NCBI GenBank assembly: GCA_964537315.1
Contig: CAZIAP010000001.1
Location: 221,938-285,937, forward strand
Length of the DNA: 64,000 bases
Reading direction: 5' to 3'
Source: an uncultured Gammaproteobacteria bacterium
GTDB taxonomy: Bacteria > Patescibacteriota > Microgenomatia > Levybacterales > GWA1-39-11
Below the pieces are notes generated by a model. It was not told where the DNA came from and did not search any database. It saw only the letters and a program-made list of their open reading frames with translations. A program made the translations under genes and the position numbers. Below are positions 21,260 to 39,902 of the stretch, in pieces. Within the stretch, counting starts at the first letter, position 1. Each line of letters starts with the position of its first letter.

Positions 21260-21317
21260 TAACGGAATGATGACAATAAAAAAAATAATTATATATTTGA
21301 GAGGGGGTGAGTACTAA

Positions 21318-21527
<210 letters not shown>

Positions 21528-21612
21528 AACGGTAAGGGAGAAGGGTGAAGAGGCATCCGCTCTAACCGGTGGACTTAACCCTTTACCTTTAACGCTTTTT
21601 GCGTAATGTATT

Positions 21613-22116
21613 ATGGAAATTTTAAACGAATTCGGATTTAATGCTGGGCTGTTAATTGCTCAGATTGTAAATTTTTTGATATTGGCATTTGTATTTAAAA
21701 AATTCTTGTACAAGCCGATACTTAAAGTACTTGAAGACCGTAGAAAAACTATTGCCAAAGGTTTGTCTGACAGCGAGAAAGCTGCTGCTGCACTTGAAAA
21801 TGCTGAAGAGGAACGAAATAAAATTCTAAAAGAAGCAACTAAAGAATCTCAAAAGATTATAGATGAAACAAAAAAAACGGCTGAGTCCCTTCGCACAGAA
21901 ATTTTAGAGTCTGCCCGCGCAGACGCTGAAAAAATATTGAAAGAAGCAAAAGAGCAGTCAAATCTTGAAATGGAGAGAATGAGAAAAGAGGCCGCTTCAA
22001 TGTCATTAACACTTTCAAAAAGCATTCTTGATCGTGTAATGACCCAAATCTTCTCTAAATCAGATAAAGAAGCCATTATAAAGAAAGGATTACAAGAAAT
22101 AGAAAAACATGGATAA
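21613..22116 (+). CDS. atpF: F0F1 ATP synthase subunit b
   Basis: N-terminal TM followed by a long charged coiled coil (AAAALENAEEERNKILKEA...). Operon position supports the call. Confidence 0.8.
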   Translation: MEILNEFGFNAGLLIAQIVNFLILAFVFKKFLYKPILKVLEDRRKTIAKGLSDSEKAAAALENAEEERNKILKEATKESQKIIDETKKTAESLRTEILESARADAEKILKEAKEQSNLEMERMRKEAASMSLTLSKSILDRVMTQIFSKSDKEAIIKKGLQEIEKHG

Positions 22117-22456
22117 ACAACTCAGAGATCTTGCATTTGCAATTGTAAAACAGCAGTCAATAAAAAAAGATGAAGTTAACAAGCTTTTAGATTCTCTTTC
22201 TGACAAACAACTAAGAAACTTTTTATATTTTTTACGTGTTGCACAAGATTCGAATAAAATAGAGATAACAACAACTTCCGACAGTCCAAAGCTTGATGAT
22301 TACTTTGCGAAAAATTTTCCAGACAAGCAGATATCATATAAAACTGATGATACAATAGGAGGAGGAGTTGTTGTAAAAATTGGAGATGACGTGTATGATT
22401 ACACTGTCCGAAATTATATTGACACAACTATTCAAAGATTAACAAACGAATTATGA
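22109..22456 (+). CDS. atpH: F0F1 ATP synthase subunit delta (short, OSCP-like)
   Basis: Position between atpF and atpA, overlapping both. C-terminal ...ISYKTDDTIGGGVVVKIGDDVYDYTVRNYIDTTIQRL resembles a delta C-terminal domain. Only 115 aa. Confidence 0.6.
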   Translation: MDKQLRDLAFAIVKQQSIKKDEVNKLLDSLSDKQLRNFLYFLRVAQDSNKIEITTTSDSPKLDDYFAKNFPDKQISYKTDDTIGGGVVVKIGDDVYDYTVRNYIDTTIQRLTNEL

Positions 22457-23976
22457 AACCTGAAGAACTTATAAAAACAATTGAACAAAAACTTTCTAAA
22501 ATTGACGCGTCTCCTACCGTCCAAAATGTAGGAACTGTTATCTCAGTTGGAGACGGCATTGTTGATCTATCCGGACTATCAAAAGTTGCATTTGGAGAGG
22601 AAGTCGAATTTGAAACTGGAAGTCGTGGCCTCGCTCTAGGTATTGAACAAGATAAAGTATCGGTAATTCTATTATCCGATGACATGGAAAAAATTCACGA
22701 AGGTATGACCGCAAAGACTACAGGCAAAGTATTAGGTCTAAATGTGTCAGATGACCTAATAGGACGTGTCGTAGACCCATTACAAAACCCACTTGACGGT
22801 AAAGAACTAAAAATTAAGAAAGGCAAGTACTATCCGTTAGAAAAAATTGCTCCTGGTGTTATTGAAAGACAATCAGTAGATACACCGCTTAAAACTGGTA
22901 TCAAAGCAATTGACGCTCTCACCCCAATAGGACGAGGACAAAGACAACTTATTATCGGCGACCGAGGAACTGGAAAAACAGCCATTGCAATTGATACCAT
23001 CATTAATCAAAAGAAAAAAGACTTAAATCTACCTCAAGTCATATGTATCTACTGCGCAATTGGTCAAAAAAGAGCTAATATTGCAAGAACAGTAGCCTTA
23101 CTTGAAGAGAACGATGCAATGAAATACTCAATAGTAGTTGCTGCAAGCGCCTCAGACCCTGCTGCTATGCAATATCTTGCTCCGTATGCTGCAACATCAA
23201 TCGCTGAGTACTTTATGGATCAAGGTAAAGATGTGCTTGTAGTATATGACGATCTCTCTAAGCATGCTTGGGCATACCGTCAAGTATCTCTGCTCTTAAG
23301 GAGACCAGCAGGACGAGAAGCATATCCTGGAGACATTTTTTACCTCCACTCCCGTTTACTTGAACGATCAGCACGAATGTCTAAAGAGCATGGTGGAGGT
23401 TCAATTACTTCTTTTCCAATTATTGAAACTCAGGCAGGAGACGTTTCAGCGTATATTCCTACAAACGTAATCTCCATCACTGACGGACAAATTTTCTTAG
23501 AAACTGATCTCTTTAATGCCGGTACTAGACCAGCTATTAATATCGGAATTTCAGTATCTCGTGTTGGAGGTGCTGCTCAAACAAAGGCCATGAAACAAAT
23601 TGCAGGACCTGTACGTATTGAAATGGCACAATTCCGTTCCTTGGCAGCGTTTGCTCAATTCGGTACCGACCTAGATGAACAAACATCAAAACAGATTGAG
23701 AGAGGTAAAAGAGTCAGTGCAATCATGAACCAACCACAATATACACCCTTTGATGAGGTATCAGAGGTAATTAGTACTTATGCTGCTACGTCCGGACTAT
23801 TAGACGATGTGCCCGTTGAGCAAGTTAACGAATTTGAAACAAAGTTTTTAGAGTTTGTAAAGGTTAAAGATAAGAAACTTGTGGAAAAAATTAGCGGCGG
23901 AGATAAAATGGATGACAATACACTTGAAGCGCTAAGAAAGGCAATTTCAGACTTTAAGAAAACATTTTTGAAATAG
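22453..23976 (+). CDS. atpA: F0F1 ATP synthase subunit alpha
   Basis: Walker A GDRGTGKTAIAIDTI. Motif ...AYRQVSLLLRRPAGREAYPGDIFYLHSRLLERSA. Confidence 0.95.
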   Translation: MKPEELIKTIEQKLSKIDASPTVQNVGTVISVGDGIVDLSGLSKVAFGEEVEFETGSRGLALGIEQDKVSVILLSDDMEKIHEGMTAKTTGKVLGLNVSDDLIGRVVDPLQNPLDGKELKIKKGKYYPLEKIAPGVIERQSVDTPLKTGIKAIDALTPIGRGQRQLIIGDRGTGKTAIAIDTIINQKKKDLNLPQVICIYCAIGQKRANIARTVALLEENDAMKYSIVVAASASDPAAMQYLAPYAATSIAEYFMDQGKDVLVVYDDLSKHAWAYRQVSLLLRRPAGREAYPGDIFYLHSRLLERSARMSKEHGGGSITSFPIIETQAGDVSAYIPTNVISITDGQIFLETDLFNAGTRPAINIGISVSRVGGAAQTKAMKQIAGPVRIEMAQFRSLAAFAQFGTDLDEQTSKQIERGKRVSAIMNQPQYTPFDEVSEVISTYAATSGLLDDVPVEQVNEFETKFLEFVKVKDKKLVEKISGGDKMDDNTLEALRKAISDFKKTFLK

Positions 23977-24058
23977 CATTCTGTATAGGTACCCCGTATC
24001 TTCAATAATGAGTCATATTGTGTATATAGGGTTTATACTGAAATCTAAACACTAAAGT

Positions 24059-24916
24059 ATGGCAGAAAATCTATTTTTACTAAAACGACGAATTAAAACA
24101 GCTAAAAACATTGCTCAGATTGCAAAAGCAATGGAAATGGTTTCTGCAAGCAAAATAAAACGCTCTCAATCCATTGTTGAAAAAAACAGAGTTTACTCTG
24201 AAAGAATTACTACGCTCACCGAGCATATTCTTTCAAATGCAGATTTAAAAAATTTCACACATCCGTTTTTAGCAACAAGCACATCAGACAAAAAACTTAC
24301 TTTCGTATTCTCTCCTGATAAGGGATTGTGCGGGTCTCTCAACACAAATATTTATAAGTTATTAATGGATAAAAATATGACCAATTCTGAAGTTGTAACA
24401 ATTGGCAAAAAAGCCGAAGGATTTTCAGCGAAAATGGAATACAATCTCGTAGCATCATTCCCAATGGGATCTACCATCCCTCACTACTCTCTTGTTCTTC
24501 AGTTAATAAAGTATATTGAACAGTACTACCAATCAACAGAAGCAGGAACTGTAGAAGTTGTATACGCAAAATTTGACTCACTTTTTCAGCAGACAATTAC
24601 TACAACACAATTACTGCCAATAGTTAGAGAAACAACAGAGTCAGAAGAAACTGATGAGGTTCATGATCTTTCTTTCCTCGTGGAACCTGATGTACACTCA
24701 ATTTTGTCCGACTTACTGCCGTACTACATCGAAGTAAAACTTTATGATATTTTGATGAATGCCTTTACTTCCGAACAAGCAGCACGTATGGTTGCTATGC
24801 AAAATGCCAAGAATAATGCAAATGATGTTGCTGATTTCCTAACTCTAACGTATAATAAGAACCGACAAGAAAAGATTACAAACGAGATCTTAGACCTTGC
24901 AAATACTGTGTCTTAG
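24059..24916 (+). CDS. atpG: F0F1 ATP synthase subunit gamma
   Basis: N-terminal KRRIKTAKNIAQIAKAMEMVSASKIKRSQ and C-terminal ...QEKITNEILDLANTVS gamma helices. Confidence 0.85.
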   Translation: MAENLFLLKRRIKTAKNIAQIAKAMEMVSASKIKRSQSIVEKNRVYSERITTLTEHILSNADLKNFTHPFLATSTSDKKLTFVFSPDKGLCGSLNTNIYKLLMDKNMTNSEVVTIGKKAEGFSAKMEYNLVASFPMGSTIPHYSLVLQLIKYIEQYYQSTEAGTVEVVYAKFDSLFQQTITTTQLLPIVRETTESEETDEVHDLSFLVEPDVHSILSDLLPYYIEVKLYDILMNAFTSEQAARMVAMQNAKNNANDVADFLTLTYNKNRQEKITNEILDLANTVS

Positions 24917-26774
<1,858 letters not shown>

Positions 26775-26777
26775 CTT

Positions 26778-27497
26778 ATGGCAAAGCAAGGATCAAGACT
26801 TACAAGATCACTTGAGCGTCAAAGCAAAAAACAGCTGTATATATTTGTGGCTGCCACTATTATTATTCTCACTACTCTTGGAGTATTTAGTACCAAAATA
26901 TTAGACGCTATAGGCAGTGTAATGATTTCAGATGAAGACAGAAACAGTTCTACTCAAGAACAAACAGTAGCACCAGTTACCCCTCCACATTTTGATGAAA
27001 TTCCCTCGGCTACTCAGACTAATACAATTAAGATCACGGGCAGCGTTAGCAGAGAAGATGGAACAGTAGAAATTTTTGTGAATAACCGCAAAGTTTCAAC
27101 AAAAAAAATTGAGTCAAATAGGAAGTTCGAGATAACTGGTATTAAAATTTCAGAGGGTGAAAATGCAGTAAAAGGTCGCTATATATTAGGAGATCGAAAA
27201 AGCGAATTTACCAGAGATTATATTGTACATTTTACAAAAGAAGCACCAAAGATTGATGGAGTATCTCCAAGCGACGGAGCAGAGTTTAAACGAGGAGATC
27301 AGGAAATTGTAGTTAGAGGAACAACAGAACCATTAAACACAGTAACTGTTAATGATTTTATAGCGATTGTTAACCAGCAAGGGGAGTTTTCCTACTTTCT
27401 TAGATTGAATGAAGGAGACAACACTATACGAATCAAGGCAGTGAGTCCTACGGGACAAGAAACAGTAAAAGAGCTAAAAGTTACTTATCACCCATAA
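26778..27497 (+). CDS. Hypothetical membrane-anchored protein with two tandem Ig-like beta-sandwich repeats, appended to the ATP synthase operon
   Basis: Start is 4 nt after the atpC stop. Cytoplasmic basic tail, one TM (LYIFVAATIIILTTLGVF), then two repeats of the pattern ...I.G...V.I.VN..........F.I..I.L.EG.N.I..KA... No enzyme motif recognised. Confidence 0.55.
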   Translation: MAKQGSRLTRSLERQSKKQLYIFVAATIIILTTLGVFSTKILDAIGSVMISDEDRNSSTQEQTVAPVTPPHFDEIPSATQTNTIKITGSVSREDGTVEIFVNNRKVSTKKIESNRKFEITGIKISEGENAVKGRYILGDRKSEFTRDYIVHFTKEAPKIDGVSPSDGAEFKRGDQEIVVRGTTEPLNTVTVNDFIAIVNQQGEFSYFLRLNEGDNTIRIKAVSPTGQETVKELKVTYHP

Positions 27498-28671
27498 CTG
27501 CTCTCCCAATACCTAATAAAGTAAAGCATAAAATCATAATAAAAGAATAGAAGAAAGCGTTTTCTGTAATACTCCCTGCAAAAACAGCTGTCAGAATTGT
27601 AAAGTTAAGATTAGGCAGCAACTTATTCTTCTGAGAACTTCTGTAGGCTTCTTTAAACATTGAAATAATCATGTAGATAAAAGATGCTGCGCCAATTAAT
27701 CCTGTTGTGGCAAGTACAAAAAGATAACTATTGGACACACCTGCGCCTGCGTGTGACACCTCTACTCCGCTTTGAATACCCTGCTGCGCATATCTGTATG
27801 CATTAAAACCTACACCAAAAATAGGGTGGTCTTTAAATATACTAATTGCAGTCTGATAGGTTTCTAATCTACTGTATATTGACGCAGTTCTAAATAGATT
27901 TACTCCTTCACTCACATATTCTTTTGGTAACAGAAAAATACCTGCAAGTAAAAGGATACCAGTTATCAAAAGAAACTTTAATTTTTTTTCTAATATTGAA
28001 AATATTGAGACTGATGCAATTAAAGCAAGGTAGCCCGTTCGTGAATAAGTAAGCATTATAAATACAAATGTTAGTAAAATTGCAGCGGCAATAACAAATC
28101 TTTTCCAACCAGGCTTTTCGCTACGAAACAAATAAACAAAAATCCATAACGCGATAATGAATATTATTGAGGCAAAATTCGGGTCAAGAAATGTAGAGAA
28201 TACCCGATATAAATGCTCATCCCATCCTAAATAAATTAGATTTCTAAGGTCGGGATATAGAAAGTATTGAAGTATTCCAAGTGTTGTTACCGCAAATAAT
28301 GATAATGCAACTGTTTTTATTAGAAATGATAAATCATTCTTTTTAAACAAAAGACCAATAATAGGAAATATCGAAAAAATAGTAACGAATCTAAGTAGGT
28401 ACATTGAAGAAACAACAAACTCTCTAACAGAAAGCCAATATAAATTTATGAGCAATGACATTGTTGCTGCAACAATAAAGAATAAATACGGCTTAAAACC
28501 TGTAAGTTTTACTCTTTCAACAGCTATTAAATACCATCCATACAAAACAAATAAAAGAACAGCAACATCGACAGGATAAACATATGCTTGAGGACCTACT
28601 GATATTCGAATCAATACTCCTGGAATAAAACTTAAAAAAATTCCAACGAACAGAATTTTTAGTATAGCCAT
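27481..28671 (-). CDS. O-antigen ligase / Wzy_C-domain polytopic membrane protein (WaaL/PglL-like)
   Basis: Polytopic. Wzy_C hallmarks ...LTYSRTGYLALIASVSIF... and ...HPIFGVGFNAYRYAQQ...SHAGAGVSNSYLFVLATTGLIGA. Confidence 0.65.
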   Translation of the reverse strand: MAILKILFVGIFLSFIPGVLIRISVGPQAYVYPVDVAVLLFVLYGWYLIAVERVKLTGFKPYLFFIVAATMSLLINLYWLSVREFVVSSMYLLRFVTIFSIFPIIGLLFKKNDLSFLIKTVALSLFAVTTLGILQYFLYPDLRNLIYLGWDEHLYRVFSTFLDPNFASIIFIIALWIFVYLFRSEKPGWKRFVIAAAILLTFVFIMLTYSRTGYLALIASVSIFSILEKKLKFLLITGILLLAGIFLLPKEYVSEGVNLFRTASIYSRLETYQTAISIFKDHPIFGVGFNAYRYAQQGIQSGVEVSHAGAGVSNSYLFVLATTGLIGAASFIYMIISMFKEAYRSSQKNKLLPNLNFTILTAVFAGSITENAFFYSFIMILCFTLLGIGRAVMGDK

Positions 28672-30263
28672 TTTTCTCCCCCTTGTGAATAAAGTGTTAC
28701 ACCGACTGTCTTATCACTATGCACTTCTTGCCATAACTTAAACCTTTCCGGAAGGGGCATATTGCTTGGCGCAAGTATGTAATTAAACTCATCTCCGGGC
28801 ATCACATAGGATTCATGAATAAACGGAAAGTCTGCATACCAAAGATTGTGTATACCATATACAAGCACCTTATCTTTATCAGTAATATTTTTTGAAAAAA
28901 AGCCCGTCGTATCGTAAAAATCACCAAATGAATAATTCAGGTATTCTATCAAGTACTCTTCTCGTGACTGCACTCCTGTAAGAATACCCAAAAATCGCAT
29001 ACTTGCTATACCACGATACCCAATTGATATGATTGCGATAGTTAAACCAGTAACAATTAAAGTATTCCGTATTGTTTTAATTTTTAGATGTTTGATAGTT
29101 ATGCCAACCAGCAATGAGATCACAGGAAGATATGGTAGTAAATATCTCCCTATTACTGTACTGGGAGTTACCAACCATATAAAAACACTAAATAATGAGT
29201 ATATTACTACTAACCTCTCATGTTTAGAAAAATAACGAAAAACTATAAGTAATAAAGGGAAAGAAATAATATATATCGGATTTACCGGATCTGCACCGGT
29301 AACAAAACCCTCCCACAAATTAGTAACCAGTCTCATTGGAGTAAGTGATTCTAATTGCACAAGATATAGATTGCTAAATACCGGGTATACAGGGTTACCA
29401 GTATTTAAAAATGAAAAAATAAAGTACGGTAGAGGAATAATTAGCGCAATGGTTATATACATTAGTGATATCTTTATGCCTTTTTTTATTTGAGTACGAA
29501 ACAAGTAAATTATCACAGGAATTAAGATTACAAGTGAACCTAATGCGATCAGTTTCGTCGAGATAGCTAACCCCGCCATAATAGCAGACTCTACAAGCCA
29601 TAGTGTTTTTTTCTCTTTTATAAATAATATAATCCCATACACTGCCATTAACTCAAAAAACGTTCTACCTAAATCTATATATGCAGTTGTAGATAGCCAA
29701 GCTACTACTAAGTTAGAGGAAAAAATTAATAAAACAAAAAATGATAGTTGTTGAGATAAAAATGTGCGAGAAATTTTATAAAGTACTATTAAAGTTAGAA
29801 TTCCAAATGAAAAATGGATTAATTTTGCAGGCACCGAACTATTCAACATCGCTGCAGGAATATAAAGCATATCAATAAGCTTTGGCATCAGCGAATAATA
29901 ATAAAGCCCACCGGGAATATAAAAAAATGACTGATTCTCAACAAAGATTTTCGGGATCGTCAAGTGGTACCACAAAGCGTCAAAAGACACCTCAGGCATA
30001 AGAGTACCAATAAAGTTCAGCATCCAAATTATTGTTAATAATAAAATAGAGATTCTTATGAAGACATTTGATTTTTTTATAAATGAGATCAAATCAATAT
30101 CTCTCCAATTTATACCTGTCCCTTCACGTCTATACCACCACAGAATGCTAATTAACCAAGCTACAGTTAGTAAAATCACCGATATTGGATATAAGAGGTG
30201 TGCAACGCCTAATGCAAATATCCCATATGAATAAATTCCTATTAAAATGGCAAGTGGAAACAT
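28659..30263 (-). CDS. Large polytopic membrane protein, possible GT-C-fold glycosyltransferase (uncertain family)
   Basis: About 13 predicted TM helices, with a first periplasmic loop carrying acidic or aromatic residues (EVSFDALWYHL). Neighbourhood with a GT-C, GT2, Wzx and Wzy_C. No definitive motif recognised. Confidence 0.35.
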   Translation of the reverse strand: MFPLAILIGIYSYGIFALGVAHLLYPISVILLTVAWLISILWWYRREGTGINWRDIDLISFIKKSNVFIRISILLLTIIWMLNFIGTLMPEVSFDALWYHLTIPKIFVENQSFFYIPGGLYYYSLMPKLIDMLYIPAAMLNSSVPAKLIHFSFGILTLIVLYKISRTFLSQQLSFFVLLIFSSNLVVAWLSTTAYIDLGRTFFELMAVYGIILFIKEKKTLWLVESAIMAGLAISTKLIALGSLVILIPVIIYLFRTQIKKGIKISLMYITIALIIPLPYFIFSFLNTGNPVYPVFSNLYLVQLESLTPMRLVTNLWEGFVTGADPVNPIYIISFPLLLIVFRYFSKHERLVVIYSLFSVFIWLVTPSTVIGRYLLPYLPVISLLVGITIKHLKIKTIRNTLIVTGLTIAIISIGYRGIASMRFLGILTGVQSREEYLIEYLNYSFGDFYDTTGFFSKNITDKDKVLVYGIHNLWYADFPFIHESYVMPGDEFNYILAPSNMPLPERFKLWQEVHSDKTVGVTLYSQGGEKWLY

Positions 30264-30345
30264 ATACCTCCTTTACATAGTAAGTTATTTATATAAAACA
30301 CCAGTATAACTATTATCCAAAGTAAAAAAACTAGAAATAAGGTTT

Positions 30346-31803
30346 TCATTTATGACGTTCTAGAATAAAATAATCATTTATTTTGTTGTTTAGTATAAAC
30401 TCTTCATTTAAGTAATCAGAAATATTGGAGTTTTTTATATCCGTTGTAATGATAACATTGACCTTTTTTTCTTCAAGTATATCTATTATCTTATCTCTAT
30501 CATTAAAGTATTGATCTGTAATGTCATTTAGATCAGATTTGGTTGGGTTATTCGTATCAGTTATAAAATAAAGTAACGGCAAATATCTATCTACATACAT
30601 ATAATCATTATCTTTTTTTATATTATTCACGCTGGTAATTATTTGTGGTATTTCATTTGCATATTTACTTTCTACCAAAATATTAACTTTTTGACTTGGT
30701 AGATAATTGTTATTTTTTATCAAAGGAGCCTCCCACTTATAGTAACCTGAGAACAATGCCTGGTAAAAACCAAGCATTATTAGAAAAATCGCTGTAGAAA
30801 TAATGACTGACTTAAGATATTTATTACTTACAAAAGTAAGTAGTACTGCAAATGATGCTCCAGTGATAGAAATTAATGGAACTAAATGAACATAATCTGT
30901 GGTAGGTCGTATTCCAACCAGGTAGTATGCAGCTACCATAATTGGATAAACAAATAATAAATTTTTATTTCGAGTTGCTATAATAATTGCAACTAAAGAT
31001 ATAAATAGCGGCAAAGTGTAAAATAATAATTTTCCTAAAGATGGTATAAACCTATCCCAGTAAATAAAGCTTGTAGTTAAGCTATTATTTATCATAATAC
31101 GCTCCCAGGTATAGGTATGAAAATCATTAATAAATGGTATGAGAGATGAAGAGAATAATAGATAGATTATGTATATAGTTAAAGGGACTAAAAGTCCAGC
31201 TGCATATAAAATTACGTTTCTTTTCTTTTGTAAATTAGTATTAGCAAATATCGTAATAAATGAAATAATTAATATTACACCACCAAAATTTTGTTTTGAT
31301 AAGAAAGTTAGCCAAGTTGTCATCCCAGCAATAAGAACAAATGCATAATCTTTATTTGTAGCGGTCTGAAGCAAATAAATTGTCAAAAATCCTGTTAATA
31401 TTGCAATCATAACAGGCCAAATAAAGTTAATATGAAAAGGACCCCAAACAAGGAACATACTAATTGATAAAAGTAATATGTAAATACTTTTTGTAATCTG
31501 CTTAGTAATTAAAAAGACAACTAGAATTGAAGATAACGAAATTAAAAGAGCTAGTACACGCGCAGAAAAAACACTTTCTCCTAGAATCTTAAATATACCT
31601 GCGGTCAGATAAATAGACAAAGGAGTATAAACAAAATGAAAATCAAGATATGGAATTTCTCCAATTAATATTCTATGCGCAGAATTAAGTATATATCCTT
31701 CATCATGGTATATGATTCCTCTAAAATGGAAAAACAATAATGATAACACAATACATGTACCAACCAAAATACTAATATAGTGTTTTTTGATTGAATGTAT
31801 CAT
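30346..31803 (-). CDS. GT-C-fold membrane glycosyltransferase (PMT_2 / ArnT / GT39-GT83-like)
   Basis: N-terminal FFHFRGIIYHDEGYILNSAHRILIGEIPYLDFHFVYTPLSIYLTAGIFKILG matches the PMT_2/ArnT first-loop DE motif region. About 11-13 TM helices and a C-terminal soluble domain. Confidence 0.6.
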   Translation of the reverse strand: MIHSIKKHYISILVGTCIVLSLLFFHFRGIIYHDEGYILNSAHRILIGEIPYLDFHFVYTPLSIYLTAGIFKILGESVFSARVLALLISLSSILVVFLITKQITKSIYILLLSISMFLVWGPFHINFIWPVMIAILTGFLTIYLLQTATNKDYAFVLIAGMTTWLTFLSKQNFGGVILIISFITIFANTNLQKKRNVILYAAGLLVPLTIYIIYLLFSSSLIPFINDFHTYTWERIMINNSLTTSFIYWDRFIPSLGKLLFYTLPLFISLVAIIIATRNKNLLFVYPIMVAAYYLVGIRPTTDYVHLVPLISITGASFAVLLTFVSNKYLKSVIISTAIFLIMLGFYQALFSGYYKWEAPLIKNNNYLPSQKVNILVESKYANEIPQIITSVNNIKKDNDYMYVDRYLPLLYFITDTNNPTKSDLNDITDQYFNDRDKIIDILEEKKVNVIITTDIKNSNISDYLNEEFILNNKINDYFILERHK

Positions 31804-31830
31804 TGTTACATTTGTATCTCTTTCAGGATT

Positions 31831-32592
31831 TTATGTGTTACCTATACCTTTCCATAGTAAGTATAGTTTGGCGCGAACTAGAAAAGAATGAAGGCTCATG
31901 ATTACTGCGTGAATAAATCCAAGTGTTCCATCTTTATATCCTGAAAGAAACAGATAATTTTTAATAAACTTAAGTTTTGGATAACCTATTATAAATAAAA
32001 TATTTGACCGAACTTTTTTTTCAAATAACTCTTCAGCTCTTAGAGTTGAGTAGTAATTAACTTTAGATAAAAAATCAGAAATATTTTGGTGTGGATAGTG
32101 TAGTAGTTCATTTTGTAGAACCGATGTTTTACCTTTGGTATAAAATTCTTCATGAACTCTACCCTTCCACTCTCCTTTTCCTTTTTTTACAAGACGAAGA
32201 AGTTGGATTTTCCCGGTTTCTCCAAACAACATTTTTTTACCAAAGAGATGGTCTCTACGTTTTAAAAAATATCCTGATATATCATCATCCTGTGAGATAA
32301 CTTGTTGTATTTCTTTTTGTAACTCTAAAGTTACACGCTCATCAGCATCAATAAATAGTATCCATTCTCCTGAGGCCTCACTCAAACCAAAGTTTCTTTG
32401 TTTTGCGAAATCGTTTTCAAGCGGACGAACACGTACATGAACTTTTGGATTACTCATCTTTTTAATAATTGATACTGTCCTATCAGTGGACTCGTCATCA
32501 ATTACTAAAATTTGATCACAGAATAATAAACTCTCAATACAATCAGCGATCATTTTTTCTTCGTTTTTTGTAAGTATAACTGCAGTTAGCAT
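31831..32592 (-). CDS. GT2 glycosyltransferase, polyprenyl-phosphate sugar synthase-like (ArnC/Ppm1/DPM1-like)
   Basis: MLTAVILTKNEEKMIADCIESL...ILVIDDESTDRT...ILFIDADERV carries the GT-A DXD motifs. 253 aa with a C-terminal amphipathic or TM tail, typical of ArnC-like enzymes. Confidence 0.7.
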   Translation of the reverse strand: MLTAVILTKNEEKMIADCIESLLFCDQILVIDDESTDRTVSIIKKMSNPKVHVRVRPLENDFAKQRNFGLSEASGEWILFIDADERVTLELQKEIQQVISQDDDISGYFLKRRDHLFGKKMLFGETGKIQLLRLVKKGKGEWKGRVHEEFYTKGKTSVLQNELLHYPHQNISDFLSKVNYYSTLRAEELFEKKVRSNILFIIGYPKLKFIKNYLFLSGYKDGTLGFIHAVIMSLHSFLVRAKLYLLWKGIGNT

Positions 32593-32613
32593 ATGAATAA
32601 TTTTACCAAAAGA

Positions 32614-33849
32614 TTAAGATGATTTTTTAATCGACCTTAGCGTAGAGAATGAATAATAAAAAATAAACGGTACCGATACAATATAACCTATAAAGGCTGC
32701 GTATGCAGCCCCTACTACTCCATATAAATTGATCATTGGAACAATTGTAGCTAACATACCAACAAGTCCAATAAGAGTTGTCAGAGTAAGGTATTTTTGT
32801 TTTTGCATTGCAAGCAAAAATGATGATACTGAGAGTGATACTGCTCTGATTACACCAAGAACAGCAAGTACGCGAAGTACTTCAACAGCACCTAACCACT
32901 GCTCACCCAAAATTATTCTAATTATTAGCTCTGGGAATATGAATAAGATAATCCCAAATGGTAGTACAAGCATAGTAATTACAACAATTGTTCTGAAATA
33001 CGCGCGCTTAAGCCTAAAATAATCATTCGATATTTTGACATAAACAGGAAATGTTACTTTATTAATGATTTCAGCAACCTCAGTAATTGGAAGCATTGAA
33101 AAACGATATGCCATATCGTATATACCGAGTGACTGTGTTCCTAATATCCTACCTACTATAATATTGTCTCCTCTCTCAAAGCCATAATTAAAAACTGTAG
33201 CTCCGGTAATCCACTTTCCATGGTTGAAAAGTGTCTTAATATAACCCGTATTTAGTCTTAATCTTGGACGAGAAGGAAAAACTATGTATGACAGAATCAC
33301 TTCTGTTATGACTCCAGCGACTAATCCCCAAATAAGACTTATCGGAGCAGGATTCAAGGCTAGTAAGATAAATGTGACAGCGACTTCTATAAGTAGAATT
33401 ATCGTCCTAAAGAAAAATTCTTTTTTAAATTTTAGTTCTTTCTGAAAAATCACTACAGAAGGGTTTATAAATCCACGAATAAATGGAACTAAACTCATGG
33501 CATACAGGAGACTTGTTGCATCAGGCGCATTAAAGAACTGCGCAACAAATGGTGCAGAAACCACCATTACTACCGCAATTATTGTCCCGCGGACAATAGA
33601 TACAATCCAGGCAGAATCAAGATAATTTTCAATGTTATCCTTTTGTTGAACTAAAAAAACATTTACACCTGTTTCAGTAATAACCTCAACAAAGGAAAGA
33701 AGAATTGTGGTAATTCCAAATAATCCGAACTGTGCAGGACTCAAGAACCGAGCAACAACAGCCGTCTTTCCCAGAGAAACAACACGAGTTACAACACGGA
33801 ATGCAGAAAGCCAGCTAAACCCAATAATCGCAGTTTTTGTATATCCCAT
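32614..33849 (-). CDS. Oligosaccharide/polysaccharide flippase (Wzx, MOP superfamily)
   Basis: 411 aa with about 12 TM helices. Polysacc_synt-type N-terminus MGYTKTAIIGFSWLSAFRVVTRVVSLGKTAVVARFLSPAQFGLFG. Confidence 0.75.
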   Translation of the reverse strand: MGYTKTAIIGFSWLSAFRVVTRVVSLGKTAVVARFLSPAQFGLFGITTILLSFVEVITETGVNVFLVQQKDNIENYLDSAWIVSIVRGTIIAVVMVVSAPFVAQFFNAPDATSLLYAMSLVPFIRGFINPSVVIFQKELKFKKEFFFRTIILLIEVAVTFILLALNPAPISLIWGLVAGVITEVILSYIVFPSRPRLRLNTGYIKTLFNHGKWITGATVFNYGFERGDNIIVGRILGTQSLGIYDMAYRFSMLPITEVAEIINKVTFPVYVKISNDYFRLKRAYFRTIVVITMLVLPFGIILFIFPELIIRIILGEQWLGAVEVLRVLAVLGVIRAVSLSVSSFLLAMQKQKYLTLTTLIGLVGMLATIVPMINLYGVVGAAYAAFIGYIVSVPFIFYYSFSTLRSIKKSS

Positions 33850-33851
33850 TA

Positions 33852-34679
33852 TTAATTCCAGCCTTTCAGAATCATCCTTGTATTTTTGGGTGATTTATAT
33901 ATAAATATTAGCGTCTGTACAACCATAAATAGTCCATGTAATGGAAAGCTTTTTATATGCTTCTTCCCAAAATATCTCCCACTTTTTACCAGGTTATATA
34001 ACTTAACTCCCGATTTAATTCCAACTGTTTTACTCAGTTGATGATTTATTTGTACTTCCGGAACAACTACTACTTTAAAACCAGCAGCTTTTGCTCTCAG
34101 ACAAAAATCCGTATCTTCGTAATATAAAAAGAATTTTTCGTCAAAATAACCTATTTTTTCAAATACTTCTCGCTTTATTATCATACAACATCCTGAAACA
34201 TAATCTACCTCTTTAACTAATTTATTTGCTGCAGTTTTTCGATTATCATGTATTGTCCTACCTATCAAATTAGAGATACTACCGCCATAATCAAACTGTT
34301 TTTTTCCATTTTCTTGAAATTGAATAAGGGGTGCAGCAATTCCTATTTTTTTATCATTTTGCATAACATCCAATACAGGAGAGAGAAAATCACTAGATAT
34401 AGAGGTGTCATTATTGATGATTGCAATATGGCTGGAATTTTTTGAGAGTGCATGTTTTATTCCAAGGTTCACCCCACCTGCAAATCCGAGATTTTTACCA
34501 GAGTTAATTAACACTCTATTCTTGTCTGATAGTTCAGTACTTTGTATATCAATCTGGGGATCATTATTTACAACTATGAGGTTGCTGTATTTTTTTTTAA
34601 ATTTTTCTAGGGATTCAATACTGCTCTTTGTGGTTGATATATCGCCGAAATGCAAAATAATTACAGATACTTTTGTCAT
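33852..34679 (-). CDS. GT2 family glycosyltransferase
   Basis: VSVIILHFGDISTTKSSIESL...VVNNDP...GFAGGVNLG...DTDFCLR matches GT-A fold motifs. Confidence 0.75.
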   Translation of the reverse strand: MTKVSVIILHFGDISTTKSSIESLEKFKKKYSNLIVVNNDPQIDIQSTELSDKNRVLINSGKNLGFAGGVNLGIKHALSKNSSHIAIINNDTSISSDFLSPVLDVMQNDKKIGIAAPLIQFQENGKKQFDYGGSISNLIGRTIHDNRKTAANKLVKEVDYVSGCCMIIKREVFEKIGYFDEKFFLYYEDTDFCLRAKAAGFKVVVVPEVQINHQLSKTVGIKSGVKLYNLVKSGRYFGKKHIKSFPLHGLFMVVQTLIFIYKSPKNTRMILKGWN

Positions 34680-35779
34680 TATTTAAATTGTTGAATTACA
34701 CCATATACACTATTTGCGCAACGTTCCCAGGTATAATCTGACACTTTTGATTTTCCTTTTTTTGTGAGCTTTATTCTTAGATCATTATTTTTGTGTAAAT
34801 CATTCATAGCTTGAGCTAACGCTTCAACATCGGTCGGTTCGACAATAATCCCTGCCTTTCCTACAACTTCTGGTAATGACCCACCATTGGAAGCTATTAC
34901 TGGGCATTCTAATGCCATAGCTTCAACAAAGGTTAGTCCGAATCCTTCGTATAAACTTGGGGAAACAAATGCAATAGCATTTCTATACAAATCAACTAGT
35001 TCATCATCCCCTGCATAACCAATAAAGGTTATTTTTTCAATGGATTCCTCGGATAGCGTACTAAGTACGGAGTCAATTTCAGGGTCAATCCATTTATCAC
35101 CGCCTATGAGCAGCAACTCGGTATCATGTTTAGTCTTTGACAAGAATAAGTCGAATGCCTTTATGAGAGCAGGAATGTTCTTGATTCGTTTTAAAGATCC
35201 TACATATAAAAAGTAAGGATTTCTTTTAATTTTTTTAACTTCTTTGCCTTGAGGAAATCTTCTTACTCCTAACGGAATAGCAATTACCTTATTTGAAGCA
35301 ATCTTGAAATATTTAATTACATCTTCTCTAGTCTTTTCAGAAATCGAGATTATGATATTTGATTTTTTTACTAACTCAGCAGTATTACTATGCAATTTCT
35401 GATAGTCTCCTGGATACGCAAAAGGATATTTCTCAAAAGCAAGATCATAGACAAACCCAATCGTTCTAATATTTGGAGACATTCGGGGAGGAGCTGACTG
35501 TCCTAATGCAAGAAATAAATTAACTCTGTCTCTGACCATTCTAATAGGCAACCATATCTTTAGCCACCCTTTCATAGGTCTCACAATGACATTACGCATA
35601 TTAGGACCAAGCCTCTTCATCAATGACTCATCTATTGGATAAAAACTGTAAAGATAGTACTTATTTTCGGTATCAATTTTACTAAGCTCCAATAGCAAGT
35701 TTTTAGCAAAATTATATACACCAACTTTAAGTCGTTTGTCCTTTACCCCTAAACACCCAGCATCTACAGCAATGTTCAT
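34679..35779 (-). CDS. GT4 (GT-B fold) glycosyltransferase
   Basis: FVSPSLYEGFGLTFVEAMALECPVIASNGGSLPEVVG gives the E-x7-E motif and GT-B C-terminal domain. Confidence 0.8.
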   Translation of the reverse strand: MNIAVDAGCLGVKDKRLKVGVYNFAKNLLLELSKIDTENKYYLYSFYPIDESLMKRLGPNMRNVIVRPMKGWLKIWLPIRMVRDRVNLFLALGQSAPPRMSPNIRTIGFVYDLAFEKYPFAYPGDYQKLHSNTAELVKKSNIIISISEKTREDVIKYFKIASNKVIAIPLGVRRFPQGKEVKKIKRNPYFLYVGSLKRIKNIPALIKAFDLFLSKTKHDTELLLIGGDKWIDPEIDSVLSTLSEESIEKITFIGYAGDDELVDLYRNAIAFVSPSLYEGFGLTFVEAMALECPVIASNGGSLPEVVGKAGIIVEPTDVEALAQAMNDLHKNNDLRIKLTKKGKSKVSDYTWERCANSVYGVIQQFK

Positions 35780-36939
35780 ATATTTATACCACTATACTTA
35801 ATTTTTGTTACATTTTCTAACACGTTTAAAAATGATCGTGCAGCATATTGTGATGAAAATCTTTGACTTACCGATTGCCTAGCACTAATGCCAATCTTTT
35901 TATATTTATCGTTTTTAGTAAGATTATTAATAATATCTATACTATTTTTAATACTAAATTTATCATACATTACACCAACATCAGATGTAACCAACTCTCT
36001 ATTCCCTCCGATATTTTTTGTAATAATAGGAATTTGCATAAAAGCAGATTCTATCATGGCGAGAGATACACCTTCATGGTGCTCTGTCGGCAAAAAAAGT
36101 ATGTCAACTGCTTGTAAGTAATCATTTACATTATTTACTTGACCAGTAAAGTAAAAATTACTCTTTAAATCTTTAACAATATTTTTTACATTTTTAAGTC
36201 TTGGTCCATCACCTATAACTATAAAGAAGTAAGAATGATCTTTCTTTAACAAAGTTTTAGCTACACTCACAAATCGATCAATCCCTTTTTCTGTGTTTAC
36301 ATTTCCAACATATCCAATACAAAGTTGAGACTTTGCTATCTTAAGAAGATTGCGCATTTTTTGACGTTTTATTCCAACCCTTTTAAATTTGTCGGAATCA
36401 ATGCCAATGTAACACGCTACTATTTTAGTAATATCAACCCCACCTACTTTTAAATCATTTTTAGTATTTTTTGAAACCGCAATTATTTTATCTGCTTTAC
36501 TACTCATAAATTTATACCAAAGCTTAATGATTATTGATCTTTCGCTTGAAAATATTGATTCATGCTCTTCCCATACAACAATAAATCCCTTATTTTTCAA
36601 AATTGGTGTTAGAATTAATTTTTCTGTCATTGAATGCAATATAATAATATCTGGTCTAAACTTATTCGCAAATTTCAAAATATAAGAGTAAGCTTTTTTA
36701 AAACTTCTAAAGTTTTTTACTAGTTTCAAAAGTTCCTTTTTCGTACCAATTTCAAAAAGAGGATTTCTAAGCATTTTGCTATCAAGATTACATGCTTTTA
36801 GTTCTTTAAGAAACTCCTTATTATTTGAAAAAGTAACTGATTTAAGTATTGAGTGTTCCTTAAAGTAACTGAATAAGTAAATGATGTACTTTTCAGTGCC
36901 ACTGTATCCATTTGTAATTCTTATATTCAATACTTTCAT
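35776..36939 (-). CDS. GT4 (GT-B fold) glycosyltransferase
   Basis: LFLPTEHHEGVSLAMIESAFMQIPIITKNIGGNRELV gives the E-x7-E motif. Overlaps its neighbours by 4 nt. Confidence 0.75.
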   Translation of the reverse strand: MKVLNIRITNGYSGTEKYIIYLFSYFKEHSILKSVTFSNNKEFLKELKACNLDSKMLRNPLFEIGTKKELLKLVKNFRSFKKAYSYILKFANKFRPDIIILHSMTEKLILTPILKNKGFIVVWEEHESIFSSERSIIIKLWYKFMSSKADKIIAVSKNTKNDLKVGGVDITKIVACYIGIDSDKFKRVGIKRQKMRNLLKIAKSQLCIGYVGNVNTEKGIDRFVSVAKTLLKKDHSYFFIVIGDGPRLKNVKNIVKDLKSNFYFTGQVNNVNDYLQAVDILFLPTEHHEGVSLAMIESAFMQIPIITKNIGGNRELVTSDVGVMYDKFSIKNSIDIINNLTKNDKYKKIGISARQSVSQRFSSQYAARSFLNVLENVTKIKYSGINI

Positions 36940-37679
36940 TGTTTTTGAACTACAATACAGTATCCGAGTGGAGCTTGAGAATTTTTATTAAAAATATACA
37001 ACTTACTTAACAAGAAAAATGAAAACATAATCACTGTTTGCACTAACCTTTTAGGGTACTTCAGTAAGTATCTATTAAGAGTTGGTTCTAAAAAAACTGA
37101 AATTAATTGTCCTATTGTAATTGCCCAGTTTCCCCTTTCTTTTATGTATACAACTTTAAAATTACTTTTCTTAGCTAGTTCTTTTAACCCGTATTTTGTA
37201 TATCTAAAATAATCTTCAGGTTCTTCATGCAAAGACCAAAATAATGGTAATGTGAGTATTGCATAACCACTTTTTTTTAAAACTCTGTGTATTTCATTCA
37301 TCATTTGCTGTGGATTGCTTACATGTTCTAATACTTGTGTAGAAATGACAGTATTAAACGAATTATCCTCTATTGGCATTTTCAGTGCAGAACCTTTTAT
37401 ATCCCCACCGTTTTTATCTAATCCTACATATTCTTCAACTATGTCTTCAAAAAGAATTTTATATGGTTTTGTTCCACATCCAACATCTAACAATTTTCCA
37501 TTTGCATATTTTCTTGCTTCAATCAACGAGTCAAGAATTGAGTCTTTTTCTAGCTTATATGGAGAGAACCACGATACTCTTAAATTATTAAATTTTTCCA
37601 CTTTATTTTTCATTATTTTCAACTTACTGTACCTGTATGTATTATACAGTAAATTTAGGTAAGTCGGCTCCATATACAT
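36936..37679 (-). CDS. Class I SAM-dependent methyltransferase (Methyltransf_11/23-like)
   Basis: LLDVGCGTKPY motif I; ...TVISTQVLEHV post-I/II motifs. Confidence 0.75.
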   Translation of the reverse strand: MYMEPTYLNLLYNTYRYSKLKIMKNKVEKFNNLRVSWFSPYKLEKDSILDSLIEARKYANGKLLDVGCGTKPYKILFEDIVEEYVGLDKNGGDIKGSALKMPIEDNSFNTVISTQVLEHVSNPQQMMNEIHRVLKKSGYAILTLPLFWSLHEEPEDYFRYTKYGLKELAKKSNFKVVYIKERGNWAITIGQLISVFLEPTLNRYLLKYPKRLVQTVIMFSFFLLSKLYIFNKNSQAPLGYCIVVQKQ

Positions 37680-37778: not shown

Positions 37779-39902
37779 TTGAAATATTTTTTACATAGAT
37801 ATATAAAAATATTCTATGTTTTACCAATAGTATTTGTTCTACTATTGAATACTTCTCAACAAGTAAAAGCCTCAAGCTGGCAAAAATCTGCAGACACCCC
37901 TATATTTATTGGTTCAGGTAATGATTGGGATAGCAAAGGAGTTCTTTCCCCGTTCGTATTGTTCGATGACAATGTATATAAAATGTGGTATGGAGGATTT
38001 AATGGAGCGAGATGGCAGATTGGTTATGCAGTTTCTAGTGACGGTATTTCATGGACATCACCTTTTGACCAGCCAATTATATCTCCTAATTTTTCTTTGA
38101 ACGAGACTGATATTAATGACCCCTATGTAATAAAAGATGGAAGCCAATACAAAATGTGGTACACATCGATTGTTCCATATTCCGGATCAGGGAACGAAGT
38201 TTTTAGAATTAACTATGCACATTCTACTGACGGCATCAACTGGGTAAAAAGTGCGGAGCCAGTTATGCGTGCTATTCCAGCGTCTTGGGAATCTGAAGGG
38301 ACAAGCAAGCCTTCTGTTTTTAAAGAAGGTAATACATATTTAATGTGGTACAGTGCGAGGGATAGAAATGGATTATGGAGAATTGGAAAGGCAACTTCAA
38401 CTAATGGTACTGATTGGAATAGAAATCAGAATAATCCCATTTTATCTTCTACTGAATCCTGGGAAATGTCACATATTGTATCACCAAATGTAATAAAAGA
38501 TGGGAGCCAATACAAAATGTGGTACCACACAGGACCTATTGTTCCACATAATATTGTATATGCTGAATCAGTGGATGGAGTCAATTGGGTAAAACCCGAA
38601 AATAAGAATCCTGTACTGTTACGTTCATCTTCAGGTTTTGACTCTGTCATGATAGCAAATCCTGCAATGCTAAAACTAAACAATAAATATGCTATGTACT
38701 ATTCTGGTTTTGACGGAAATAGATGGTCTACTGGGTACGCTACGATGGCTATTGAATCCACCTCAGTTCCGCTTCTTAAGCAAACTGCAAACCCTTGGCA
38801 GGATGATGTATATGATCGGGCAAATTTATGGGCGTCGAACAACCCAACAATACATCGATGGGGTTGTGCCGTAACATCCGCAGCAATGATTTTTCAGTAT
38901 CATGGATATAAAAAACTACCTGACGGTACAAATTTAGACCCTGGTACATTAAATTCTTGGCTTAACAGTCAAAGAGACGGCTACGTTGGCAACGGATTAG
39001 TCAACTGGATTGCTCTTTCACGACTATCTAAGCTAGCTAAAGAAGTAAATAACATTACTACTCACGATGCACTAGAATTCAGCAGAACAGGCAAAAACAA
39101 TGCACTTCTTGAAAGCGACCTAGAAAATGGAAACCCTGCCATCCTTTTACAACCTGGACATTTCATTGTGGGTACACAAAAACTTTCCGATACCTTCGCA
39201 ATTAACGACCCATACCATAATCGAAGTTCCCTAAAAGATGGTTATGGTAACACATACCAAGGACTATACAGGTTCATTCCTTCAAATACTGACTTGTCAT
39301 ATTTGATGATTGTACTGCCAAAGGGAATAAATGCAGATGTAGTAAATGAGAGCGGAAATATAGTTAGCCAAACCTATATTGAACCAGCGATAATTGCCCA
39401 AGACAACCCATCAATCAGCTCAGGAGATGACACAACTGTCTTGCTCGTTCCCAAACCGGAAAGCGGTATTTATACATTAAAAATAAACTCTCTTACCCCT
39501 AAATCATACACTACTACGCTGTATGTTTATGATAATGATGGGAATCCATTAGAGCTACCCATTGCGGGAATTGCAAACAAACAAAATGGATATTACTTAA
39601 TAACAGTGGATAAAGAAAATTCTGAGAACTCTTCAATAAAAAAGCAAGTCACTTACTCTTCAATACTTAACGAGCTTAGCACTGCGTACAAAAATAAGTT
39701 AATAAAGAAAAGTGCGTACAATGCACTAAGTTCAATTATTAAAAGCTCACAAAAACACTACATAAAAAAGAAAATTTTTCAAGCTAAATTGAAAATTGAT
39801 ACATCTCTTCTGTTAATTTCTCTTGGCTTCTCATCGTCTATAGAAAAGAGTTATAAACACATACTCATAAGTGACCTCAGAGTCCTAAAATCCACGCTAT
39901 AA
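37779..39902 (+). CDS. Secreted multidomain protein: Asp-box (BNR) beta-propeller (sialidase/GH-like), C39-like papain-fold cysteine peptidase domain, C-terminal beta-sandwich and helical tail
   Basis: Signal peptide MKYFLHRYIKIFYVLPIVFVLLLNTSQQVKA. Five repeats of the form ..YKMWY....G.A.S.DG..W.. with Asp-boxes SSDGISW, STDGINW, STNGTDW and SVDGVNW. Then WGCAVTSAAMIFQYHG...PGHFIVGT...FAINDPY matches Peptidase_C39_2 (Cys...His...Asp). Confidence 0.6.
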   Translation: MKYFLHRYIKIFYVLPIVFVLLLNTSQQVKASSWQKSADTPIFIGSGNDWDSKGVLSPFVLFDDNVYKMWYGGFNGARWQIGYAVSSDGISWTSPFDQPIISPNFSLNETDINDPYVIKDGSQYKMWYTSIVPYSGSGNEVFRINYAHSTDGINWVKSAEPVMRAIPASWESEGTSKPSVFKEGNTYLMWYSARDRNGLWRIGKATSTNGTDWNRNQNNPILSSTESWEMSHIVSPNVIKDGSQYKMWYHTGPIVPHNIVYAESVDGVNWVKPENKNPVLLRSSSGFDSVMIANPAMLKLNNKYAMYYSGFDGNRWSTGYATMAIESTSVPLLKQTANPWQDDVYDRANLWASNNPTIHRWGCAVTSAAMIFQYHGYKKLPDGTNLDPGTLNSWLNSQRDGYVGNGLVNWIALSRLSKLAKEVNNITTHDALEFSRTGKNNALLESDLENGNPAILLQPGHFIVGTQKLSDTFAINDPYHNRSSLKDGYGNTYQGLYRFIPSNTDLSYLMIVLPKGINADVVNESGNIVSQTYIEPAIIAQDNPSISSGDDTTVLLVPKPESGIYTLKINSLTPKSYTTTLYVYDNDGNPLELPIAGIANKQNGYYLITVDKENSENSSIKKQVTYSSILNELSTAYKNKLIKKSAYNALSSIIKSSQKHYIKKKIFQAKLKIDTSLLLISLGFSSSIEKSYKHILISDLRVLKSTL

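Follow-up and report, generated by a model that had tools for sequence, protein, structure and literature searches.

Here, we describe a glycan-assembly island carried by a 64,000-nucleotide stretch of contig CAZIAP010000001.1, the whole of which we call the window, together with its counterparts in related species of Candidatus Levybacteria. Nine contiguous minus-strand open reading frames (ORFs) fill positions 27481-37679 of the window, and a plus-strand gene for a membrane-anchored Ig-like protein of 239 amino acids (aa), Ig239, adjoins them. Across some 80 species, the island combines a conserved core with a replaceable periphery: a Wzy_C-family enzyme, an ArnT-like glycosyltransferase (GT) of the GT-C class (GT-C#1), Ig239 and a 253-aa glycosyltransferase of family 2 (GT2) form the core, and the other transferases are swapped between species. 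We propose, with moderate confidence, that the island serves a Wzx-dependent pathway for a lipid-linked glycan, in which the Wzy_C protein would be a ligase-type transferase acting on a conserved acceptor other than lipopolysaccharide (LPS). Every component of the island comes from a known family, and its overall logic is that of known Gram-negative and Gram-positive systems. Three features are new: an island that, throughout Levybacteria, keeps its site and its core while its periphery is replaceable; the association of Ig239 with Wzy_C and GT-C#1 in that core; and a corrected assignment of the 253-aa GT2.

Relatives of the Wzy_C protein are encoded in 412 stretches of GTDB species-representative genomes (one genome per species). 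We fetched 80 of these loci, which carry the prefix L below, called their ORFs and labelled them with the proteins of the window. In these loci of related species, the island lies at one chromosomal site, bounded on one side by the genes for RodA, L21, L27, ParB and signal peptidase and on the other by Ig239, the ATP synthase and DnaE; both bounds are visible in the window and in L004, L038, L043, L056, L060, L065, L071 and L076. Retention was counted in those loci, 44 in all, whose sequence extends for at least 9 kb upstream. The 253-aa GT2 is kept in 41 of them, GT-C#1 in 34 and an ortholog of the Wzx flippase in 22, and the remaining genes are rare: the 275-aa GT2 occurs in four loci, the second GT-C protein (GT-C#2) in three, the 366-aa glycosyltransferase of family 4 (GT4) in two, and the 387-aa GT4 and the 247-aa methyltransferase (MT247) in none. 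Divergent MOP flippases are found in other islands. The genes that replace the peripheral set encode other GT2s and GT4s, methyltransferases, a DegT aminotransferase and GT-C proteins of the PMT_2, PMT, GT87 and YfhO families. GT-C#1 lies directly upstream of the Wzy_C gene in 48 of 68 loci. Pairwise identities of the core proteins track those of AtpD (Spearman coefficients of 0.61 for Wzy_C, 0.58 for GT-C#1, 0.67 for Ig239 and 0.49 for the 253-aa GT2), and we therefore regard these proteins as a vertically inherited core.

The Wzy_C protein (396 aa; 27481-28671, minus strand) matches Pfam PF04932 with an E-value of 3e-18, scoring 66.5 bits against a cutoff of 31.7 and covering the full model from 1 to 149, and the motif NSYLFVLATTGLIGA that the initial annotation quoted for it is present. 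More than 1191 homologues of about 400 aa were found, those with names coming mostly from Candidatus Levybacteria or Patescibacteria, and the identical protein occurs on Logan and NCBI metagenome contigs. A search of the PDB with the single sequence found nothing. The AlphaFold (AF2) model (pLDDT 86.6, pTM 0.90) has one confident fold match in the PDB by Foldseek, the O-antigen ligase WaaL of Cupriavidus metallidurans (CmWaaL; 7TPG; E-value 4.9e-8, TM-score 0.57), followed by the SEDS proteins FtsW and RodA with E-values of 1e-3 or weaker. With WaaL, a member of GT121, the protein shares the Pfam domain, a predicted fold of about 12 transmembrane (TM) segments and a pair of arginines. In a family alignment of 34 sequences, both arginines, R211 (in a T-Y-S-R turn) and R268, are invariant, as are R261, R293, P283, G286, G288, N290, N314 and T322-T323-G324. 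Two features set the protein apart from WaaL: its extracytoplasmic loop is shorter (about 67 residues), and it has a second invariant loop motif, G-W-D-x-H...R...D-P-N, at residues 149-165. A low-probability hhalign alignment of the family to Escherichia coli K-12 WaaL, which we used only to place the two arginines, pairs R211 with R215, R268 with R288, H307 with H336 and S313-N314 with H338-N339. In CmWaaL, R191 and R265 bind the phosphates of undecaprenyl diphosphate (Und-PP) and a histidine, H313, activates the acceptor (PMC10920833). The conserved arginine pair thus points to a diphosphate-linked donor.

We infer ligase-type transfer, rather than polymerization, because the Wzy_C protein is conserved while the donor-building genes change, because no chain-length regulator was seen, because it is the only candidate terminal transferase in islands without a GT-C and because the arginines that bind Und-PP are retained. 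It has been argued that ligases, which take varied donors to a single acceptor, show stronger conservation than polymerases (PMC10920833). WaaL, like the Wzy_C protein, acts downstream of Wzx and is conserved while the transferases that build its donor vary. A polymerase would be expected to co-vary with the transferase set, and instead the Wzy_C ortholog is retained and tracks AtpD while the GT4, 275-aa GT2 and methyltransferase genes are replaced. A polymerase would also be expected to have a Wzx encoded alongside, and in this respect the island does conform, with the flippase at 32614-33849 in the window and MOP flippases in the related islands examined. No Wzz or polysaccharide co-polymerase (PCP) protein was found in the scanned ORFs of the window or among representatives of the larger clusters of neighbouring genes from the 80 loci, and the annotated neighbour families hold no second Wzy-like polytopic protein.

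Several points weigh against a ligase. The position of the canonical WaaL histidine (the HN motif) is occupied by Ser, Pro, Asp or Glu in the Wzy_C family, a histidine seven residues upstream, H307, is kept in only about 80% of the sequences, and related inverting polymerases carry Asp or Glu at the histidine position (PMC10920833). The hhalign match to E. coli WaaL has a low probability, the PDB yielded no WaaL match by sequence even with the family profile, and the sole NCBIfam match, PEP_O_lig_1, stays below its cutoff (65.6 bits, with 188 required). TuaE and SscD, both Wzy_C-family proteins of monoderm bacteria, are predicted polymerases (PMC11841062). The closest relatives, L003 and L027 (Wzy_C identity 50-54%), share the transferase set of the window, so peripheral turnover is seen between species and not within one. 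Finally, no acceptor, primer enzyme or polyprenyl-phosphate-sugar synthase was identified. Monoderm Wzy_C proteins are predicted O-oligosaccharyltransferases in some systems and polymerases in others, and homology alone thus does not settle the role of this one. The protein had been put forward as a ligase homologue: the WaaL-like fold bears this out and the comparative evidence favours a ligase-type role, the histidine position is ambiguous, and the score with the curated ligase model is below its threshold.

In the pathway that we favour, a primer enzyme encoded elsewhere would put the first sugar-phosphate on polyprenyl phosphate. There is precedent for a distant primer gene in E. coli, where wecA is located outside the O-antigen clusters. 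The 253-aa GT2 and the species-specific GT2, GT4 and methyltransferase enzymes would then extend this primer to a probably methylated oligosaccharide in the cytoplasm, and Wzx would flip the product, still linked to its lipid, to the other side of the membrane. The Wzy_C protein, with its WaaL fold, would hold the polyprenyl-diphosphate donor via its two conserved arginines and move the glycan en bloc to a conserved acceptor other than lipid A-core, which may be a surface protein, a membrane lipid or a wall polymer. At the outer face, the GT-C enzymes would come into play; their likeliest task is the addition of single sugars, taken from polyprenyl-phosphate-sugar donors whose synthesis takes place elsewhere.

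The primer enzyme was sought in the 64-kb window and, in relatives, within about 10 kb on either side of the Wzy_C gene. The initial annotation had noted that the window lacks an initiating phosphoglycosyltransferase, and we agree: the single polyprenyl-phosphate phospho-sugar transferase there is MraY, which belongs to the dcw cluster at 52-63 kb, is the window's sole Glycos_transf_4 (PF00953) protein and scores above the TIGR00445 cutoff. No phosphoglycosyltransferase was found among the annotated gene families of the related islands either. This absence suits a different scheme, modelled on the polysaccharide pellicle (PSP) of Lactococcus, in which the Wzy_C protein would be a repeat-unit polymerase and GT-C#1, conserved and coupled to it in translation, would transfer the glycan from its carrier to an acceptor in the wall or membrane. 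In such a scheme, a GT2 may start the glycan on a polyprenyl monophosphate carrier, and the lack of a phosphoglycosyltransferase would then be accounted for. Lactococci assemble their glycan on C55-P, and from strain to strain they keep the GT2 initiator (WpsA/B), the Wzx flippase (WpsG) and the GT-C transferase (WpsJ) but differ in the transferases that elongate it (PMC10821137), a split between conserved and variable genes that matches the one in Levybacteria islands. The 13-nt overlap of GT-C#1 with the Wzy_C gene, in the window and in three relatives, and the predicted polymerase role of TuaE and SscD fit this scheme as well. It is the main rival of the ligase model, and we nevertheless consider it the less likely of the two. 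GT-C#1 is missing from about 10 of the 44 islands, and some have no GT-C at all, although Wzx, the 253-aa GT2 and Wzy_C are all retained there; conservation of the two WaaL arginines that bind Und-PP argues for a diphosphate donor; and the Wzy_C protein does not co-vary with the transferase set and has no chain-length regulator that we could find.

Two modules for the multi-component transmembrane glycosylation of wall polymers in Gram-positive bacteria, GacI/J-GacK-GacL of Streptococcus pyogenes and WpsA/B-WpsG-WpsJ of Lactococcus, resemble the island in holding no phosphoglycosyltransferase, and differ from it in other ways. The conserved GT2 of the island is GmaR/SunS-like and not GacI-, WpsA- or DPMS-like (neither GT2 of the island is DPMS-like), and no small activator of the GacJ/WpsB kind was seen, the island containing no small polytopic ORF. 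Of the parts of the island, the WaaL-fold enzyme with its diphosphate-binding arginines is the most conserved, and some related islands have no GT-C. Also comparable are the monoderm clusters with Wzy_C enzymes and no LPS, namely those of WsaB/WsfB (Geobacillus, Paenibacillus), TuaE (Bacillus subtilis teichuronic acid) and SscD (Staphylococcus aureus). In these, too, Wzy_C is encoded with GT2 and GT4 transferases, in the Tua and Ssc systems also with a MOP flippase, and the best named NCBIfam matches of the window's Wzx and of one of its GT4s are TuaB and TuaC, both below cutoff. An initiating phosphoglycosyltransferase is part of the tua, ssc and slg clusters (TuaA, SscB and WsaP, respectively) and not of the Levybacteria island, which also differs in having no TuaF-like chain-length protein and no TPR module, and in having a GT-C in its conserved core.

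Among the cytoplasmic transferases of the island, the 253-aa GT2 (31831-32592, minus strand) shows the highest conservation (median identity 52%), on the strength of which we suggest that it may perform a conserved early glycosyl transfer on the lipid-linked glycan. The initial annotation had described it as ArnC/Ppm1-like; by sequence and by predicted fold, its closest solved relatives are instead GmaR, SunS and ThuS. A search of the PDB with the family profile ranked GmaR first (1.2e-26), then SunS (4e-15), with DPMS (1.9e-6), GtrB (6e-5) and ArnC (6e-4) far behind, and GmaR was also the best match of the single sequence (8e-20), followed by SunS, ThuS and TarS. Its AF2 model (pLDDT 93.9) has SunS/ThuS as best Foldseek match (3e-15), with DPMS at rank 34 and GtrB and ArnC not in the top 50. 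Among NCBIfam models, a SunS-family model came top, below its cutoff, and no ArnC or GtrB model matched.

These results bear on the proposal that the 253-aa GT2 is an ArnC/Ppm1-type polyprenyl-phosphate-sugar synthase feeding both GT-C enzymes, which we now judge unlikely. Its position would suit that role: in the window, as in most relatives, the next gene downstream encodes a GT-C, and the 253-aa GT2 is the only cytoplasmic transferase conserved together with GT-C#1. It has no TM helix but three C-terminal helices, as in the synthases WpsA and GacI, which also lack TM helices. On the other side stand the precedence of GmaR and SunS/ThuS over DPMS, GtrB and ArnC in profile and fold searches and the lack of an NCBIfam match to ArnC or GtrB models. 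In addition, the 253-aa GT2 abuts the Wzy_C gene in nine of 68 loci that lack GT-C#1, among them L056, L060 and L065, where no GT-C was found. The fusions of a GT2 with a GT-C that occur in many islands use the 275-aa type of GT2, not the 253-aa type.

Both GT-C proteins are ArnT-like enzymes as far as their sequences tell, the assignment of GT-C#2 being the less secure, and the earlier claim of two GT-C enzymes in the locus is supported. GT-C#1 (534 aa; 28659-30263, minus strand), of the ArnT/PMT_2 type, matches Pfam PMT_2 at 7e-7, above the gathering score (30.0 bits against a threshold of 26.1), and its family profile matches ArnT (5EZM) at 6.2e-5; a search of the PDB with the single sequence found nothing. 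Its first outer loop has the invariant motif P-E...F-D-A-L-W-Y-H (P90-E91...D95-x-L-W-Y-H), including E91 and D95, and besides roughly 11 predicted TM segments the protein has a soluble extracytoplasmic domain, also conserved, at its C-terminus. The stop codon of its gene overlaps the start of the Wzy_C gene by the 13 nt mentioned above, and the overlap is identical in L003, L005 and L006. GT-C#2 (485 aa; 30346-31803, minus strand) is a divergent PMT_2-like protein with about nine predicted TM segments, matching PMT_2 at 8e-4, below the gathering score (20.1 bits against 26.1). Its first loop contains an invariant H-D-E-G-Y (D34-E35), PF13231 is carried by 10 of 30 homologues, and hhalign of its family against that of GT-C#1 gives an E-value of 9e-5 with a probability of 59%. 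In the PDB, its single sequence gave only chance-level matches (E-value above 0.1) and its family profile nothing useful. The two proteins share with ArnT, and with PMT_2, GT83 and GT39 enzymes in general, an invariant acidic first outer loop and 9-11 TM segments, and they differ from ArnT in having no ArnC-type or DPM1-type donor synthase near them in the window.

Single polypeptides that join a cytoplasmic GT2 of the 275-aa type to a PMT_2 GT-C, about 725-770 aa long, are common in Levybacteria islands. We know of no characterised counterpart of such fusions. They occur in L006 (3867-6056), L013, L020, L028, L031, L033, L036, L045, L051, L053, L059, L062, L063, L066, L067, L074, L075, L078, L082, L084 and L085; those of about 730 aa were found in 19 of the 44 loci, and P0244 and P0245 are fusions of a GT2 with GT-C#2. 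The 275-aa GT2 of the window is 30% identical to the N-terminus of P0245 (2e-27), while the 253-aa GT2 reaches only an E-value of 0.064. The possibility that the fusions of about 730 aa tie the 253-aa GT2 to a GT-C was considered and rejected, the fused GT2 being of the 275-aa type.

Ig239 (26778-27497, plus strand) matches Pfam Glucodextran_B at 1.5e-12. It begins with a conserved N-terminal SRL motif and one TM helix, followed by a variable linker rich in Ser, Thr, Pro and Ala (median fraction 0.42) and two Ig-like domains, and it contains a conserved motif, I-x-P-P-x-L...A-T-N-S. With its start 3 nt past atpC, the gene appears to be the closing member of the ATP synthase operon; it is convergent with the Wzy_C gene, and the 3' ends of the two overlap by 17 nt. 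It is the immediate neighbour of Wzy_C in 72 of 79 loci, and it stays with Wzy_C where other genes intervene before the ATP synthase operon or where the operon is absent (L038). We regard Ig239 as a candidate acceptor or accessory protein of the Wzy_C enzyme.

An acceptor role for Ig239 would amount to protein O-glycosylation, with the Wzy_C protein as a PglL/WsaB-type enzyme, or GT-C#1 as a PMT-type one, and Ig239 or other surface proteins receiving the glycan. The constancy with which Ig239 accompanies Wzy_C, even apart from the ATP synthase operon, speaks for this, as does the variable Ser/Thr/Pro/Ala-rich linker between its anchor and its Ig-like domains. WsaB and WsfB, which have the Wzy_C domain, are predicted S-layer O-oligosaccharyltransferases of Gram-positive bacteria (PMC2943079). 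As a general account of the island it is nonetheless improbable in our view: the Wzy_C protein has no TPR or other protein-binding module by Pfam, such as PglL and WsfB possess, and Ig239 is co-oriented with the ATP synthase operon and begins 3 nt after atpC, so its linkage to Wzy_C may be partly positional. Slightly more speculative still is a specific version, in which Ig239, Wzy_C, GT-C#1 and the 253-aa GT2 would together form a CPR-specific protein-glycosylation device, with Ig239 as a dedicated stalk displaying the species-specific glycan exported by Wzx. In a bacterium that is monoderm and depends on a host, such a stalk would be the protein-borne, functional counterpart of O-antigen and would take part in recognition between the bacterium and its host or phages.

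Classical WaaL activity, with O-antigen being ligated to the lipid A-core of a diderm organism, would account for the WaaL fold and the Wzy_C domain, but we regard it as next to impossible here. Homologue names and synteny place the organism, an uncultured bacterium represented by a metagenome-assembled genome, in Candidatus Levybacteria, within the Patescibacteria or Candidate Phyla Radiation (CPR), and, to our knowledge, CPR bacteria lack LPS synthesis. The initial annotation was right that MurT/GatD are present (10687-12897) and that LPS genes are missing, as none for lipid A, core or Lpt was found among the window ORFs scanned. The favoured ligase-type enzyme of the island differs from WaaL in having no lipid A-core acceptor, as well as in the residue at the catalytic histidine position. 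Many of the synteny records of Levybacteria type (L007, L010, L013, L017, L018, L036-L041 and others) bear the title 'uncultured Gammaproteobacteria bacterium', while the title of one names Limnocylindrales and that of another Saccharimonadales; such titles look like placeholders or mistakes.

CPR bacteria, or Patescibacteria, are tiny, many are thought to depend on attachment to other cells, and their surface is almost undescribed. A search of the literature on O-antigen ligases, glycosylation and flippases in Patescibacteria/CPR found nothing specific and no description of an island of this kind. It is in this light that we view the retention of a glycan island exceeding 10 kb, at one fixed site, by a lineage with genomes of about 1 Mb. 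A conserved transfer module paired with sugar-building enzymes that change from species to species is the mark that diversifying pressure on a surface structure leaves in genomes, as exerted by host specificity or by phages that use the structure as a receptor. In addition, a large and well-conserved family of more than 1000 sequences bears on the role of WaaL-like (GT121-type) enzymes without LPS.

Turning to the layout of the locus, the initial annotation had spoken of ten genes, most of them overlapping by 1-13 nt. The ORF list gives nine between 27481 and 37679, as does that annotation's own list, and overlaps are confined to four of the eight junctions (13, 1, 4 and 4 nt), the other four being gaps of 2, 21, 27 and 82 nt. 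The G+C fraction is 0.28-0.34 within these limits and 0.37-0.39 in the flanks. At low coordinates, the island is preceded by the F1Fo ATP synthase operon (20486-26774) and Ig239; at high coordinates, it is followed by a divergent gene for a protein with GH130 and Peptidase_C39_2 domains and then by the genes for signal peptidase, ParB, L27, L21 and RodA. Promoter and terminator scans of 26.5-40.5 kb gave sites no more numerous than in shuffled sequence and were not used.

Pfam upheld the family assignments made previously for the Wzy_C protein, the flippase, the 275-aa GT2, the two GT4s and the S-adenosylmethionine (SAM)-dependent methyltransferase. The flippase (411 aa; 32614-33849, minus strand), of the Wzx/MOP family, matches Polysacc_synt_3 at 2.6e-76 and has at least eight predicted TM segments; its NCBIfam matches to the MOP flippase (3e-53) and TuaB (6e-43) models are both below the equivalog cutoffs. 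The 275-aa GT2 (33852-34679, minus strand) matches Pfam GT2 families and falls in the rhamnosyltransferase/WbbL-like subgroup (TIGR01556, 6.7e-30, below cutoff), with one C-terminal hydrophobic segment. Next come the 366-aa GT4 (34679-35779, minus strand; Glycos_transf_1, 8.5e-36) and the 387-aa GT4 (35776-36939, minus strand; Glycos_transf_1, 5.7e-24), the latter being distantly TuaC-like (NCBIfam TuaC, 1.4e-28, far below cutoff). The first gene of the minus-strand run encodes MT247 (36936-37679, minus strand; Methyltransf_11, 7.3e-15), which has one predicted TM segment, a C-terminal hydrophobic stretch. Methyltransferases that are not orthologous to MT247 are common in related islands.

In many relatives, a soluble protein of about 405 aa with a C-x-x-C...C-x-x-C motif is encoded on the minus strand, divergently, beside Wzx (L013, 1585-2799; L028, 31-1242; L033, L059, L062, L066, L074 and L082), and it has no counterpart in the window. 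These ORFs of around 400 aa were considered as a hidden polymerase and rejected, the proteins being soluble with an N-terminal Cys-rich motif. They are probably sugar C-methyltransferases, since a gene of similar length in L005 carries Methyltransf_13/14, which would point to C-methylated sugars in the species that have them.

The divergent gene beyond MT247 (37779-39902, plus strand) occupies what is left of the island before the signal peptidase gene. Its 707-aa product has an N-terminal hydrophobic segment serving as signal or anchor, a GH130-like domain of the beta-mannoside phosphorylase/mannosidase type (2.4e-19) and a Peptidase_C39_2 domain (1.8e-6), an unusual pairing. Relatives lie within or at the edge of the islands in L048 (1004 aa) and L075 (741 aa). 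The protein is probably an extracytoplasmic, glycan-processing member of the island.

Elsewhere in the window, a 1898-aa protein (1051-6747, minus strand) combines DUF5060, collagen-binding-like, SdrD_B, dockerin and PQQ beta-propeller domains; it is probably a surface adhesin or enzyme and is another possible target of glycosylation. A GlmU-like protein (247 aa; 59455-60198, minus strand) consists of the uridyltransferase domain alone, and a separate 152-aa GNAT acetyltransferase (58995-59453, minus strand) replaces the usual left-handed beta-helix acetyltransferase domain of GlmU. Between the phosphohexomutase gene and ftsZ, a 222-aa homologue of IS200-like Y1 transposases adjoins an intradiol-dioxygenase-like protein (49644-50312, minus strand, and 50341-51009, plus strand). 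The ATP synthase delta subunit (22109-22456, plus strand) is only 115 aa long and matches no more than the C-terminal part of the OSCP profile, and its relatives are equally short (113-126 aa).

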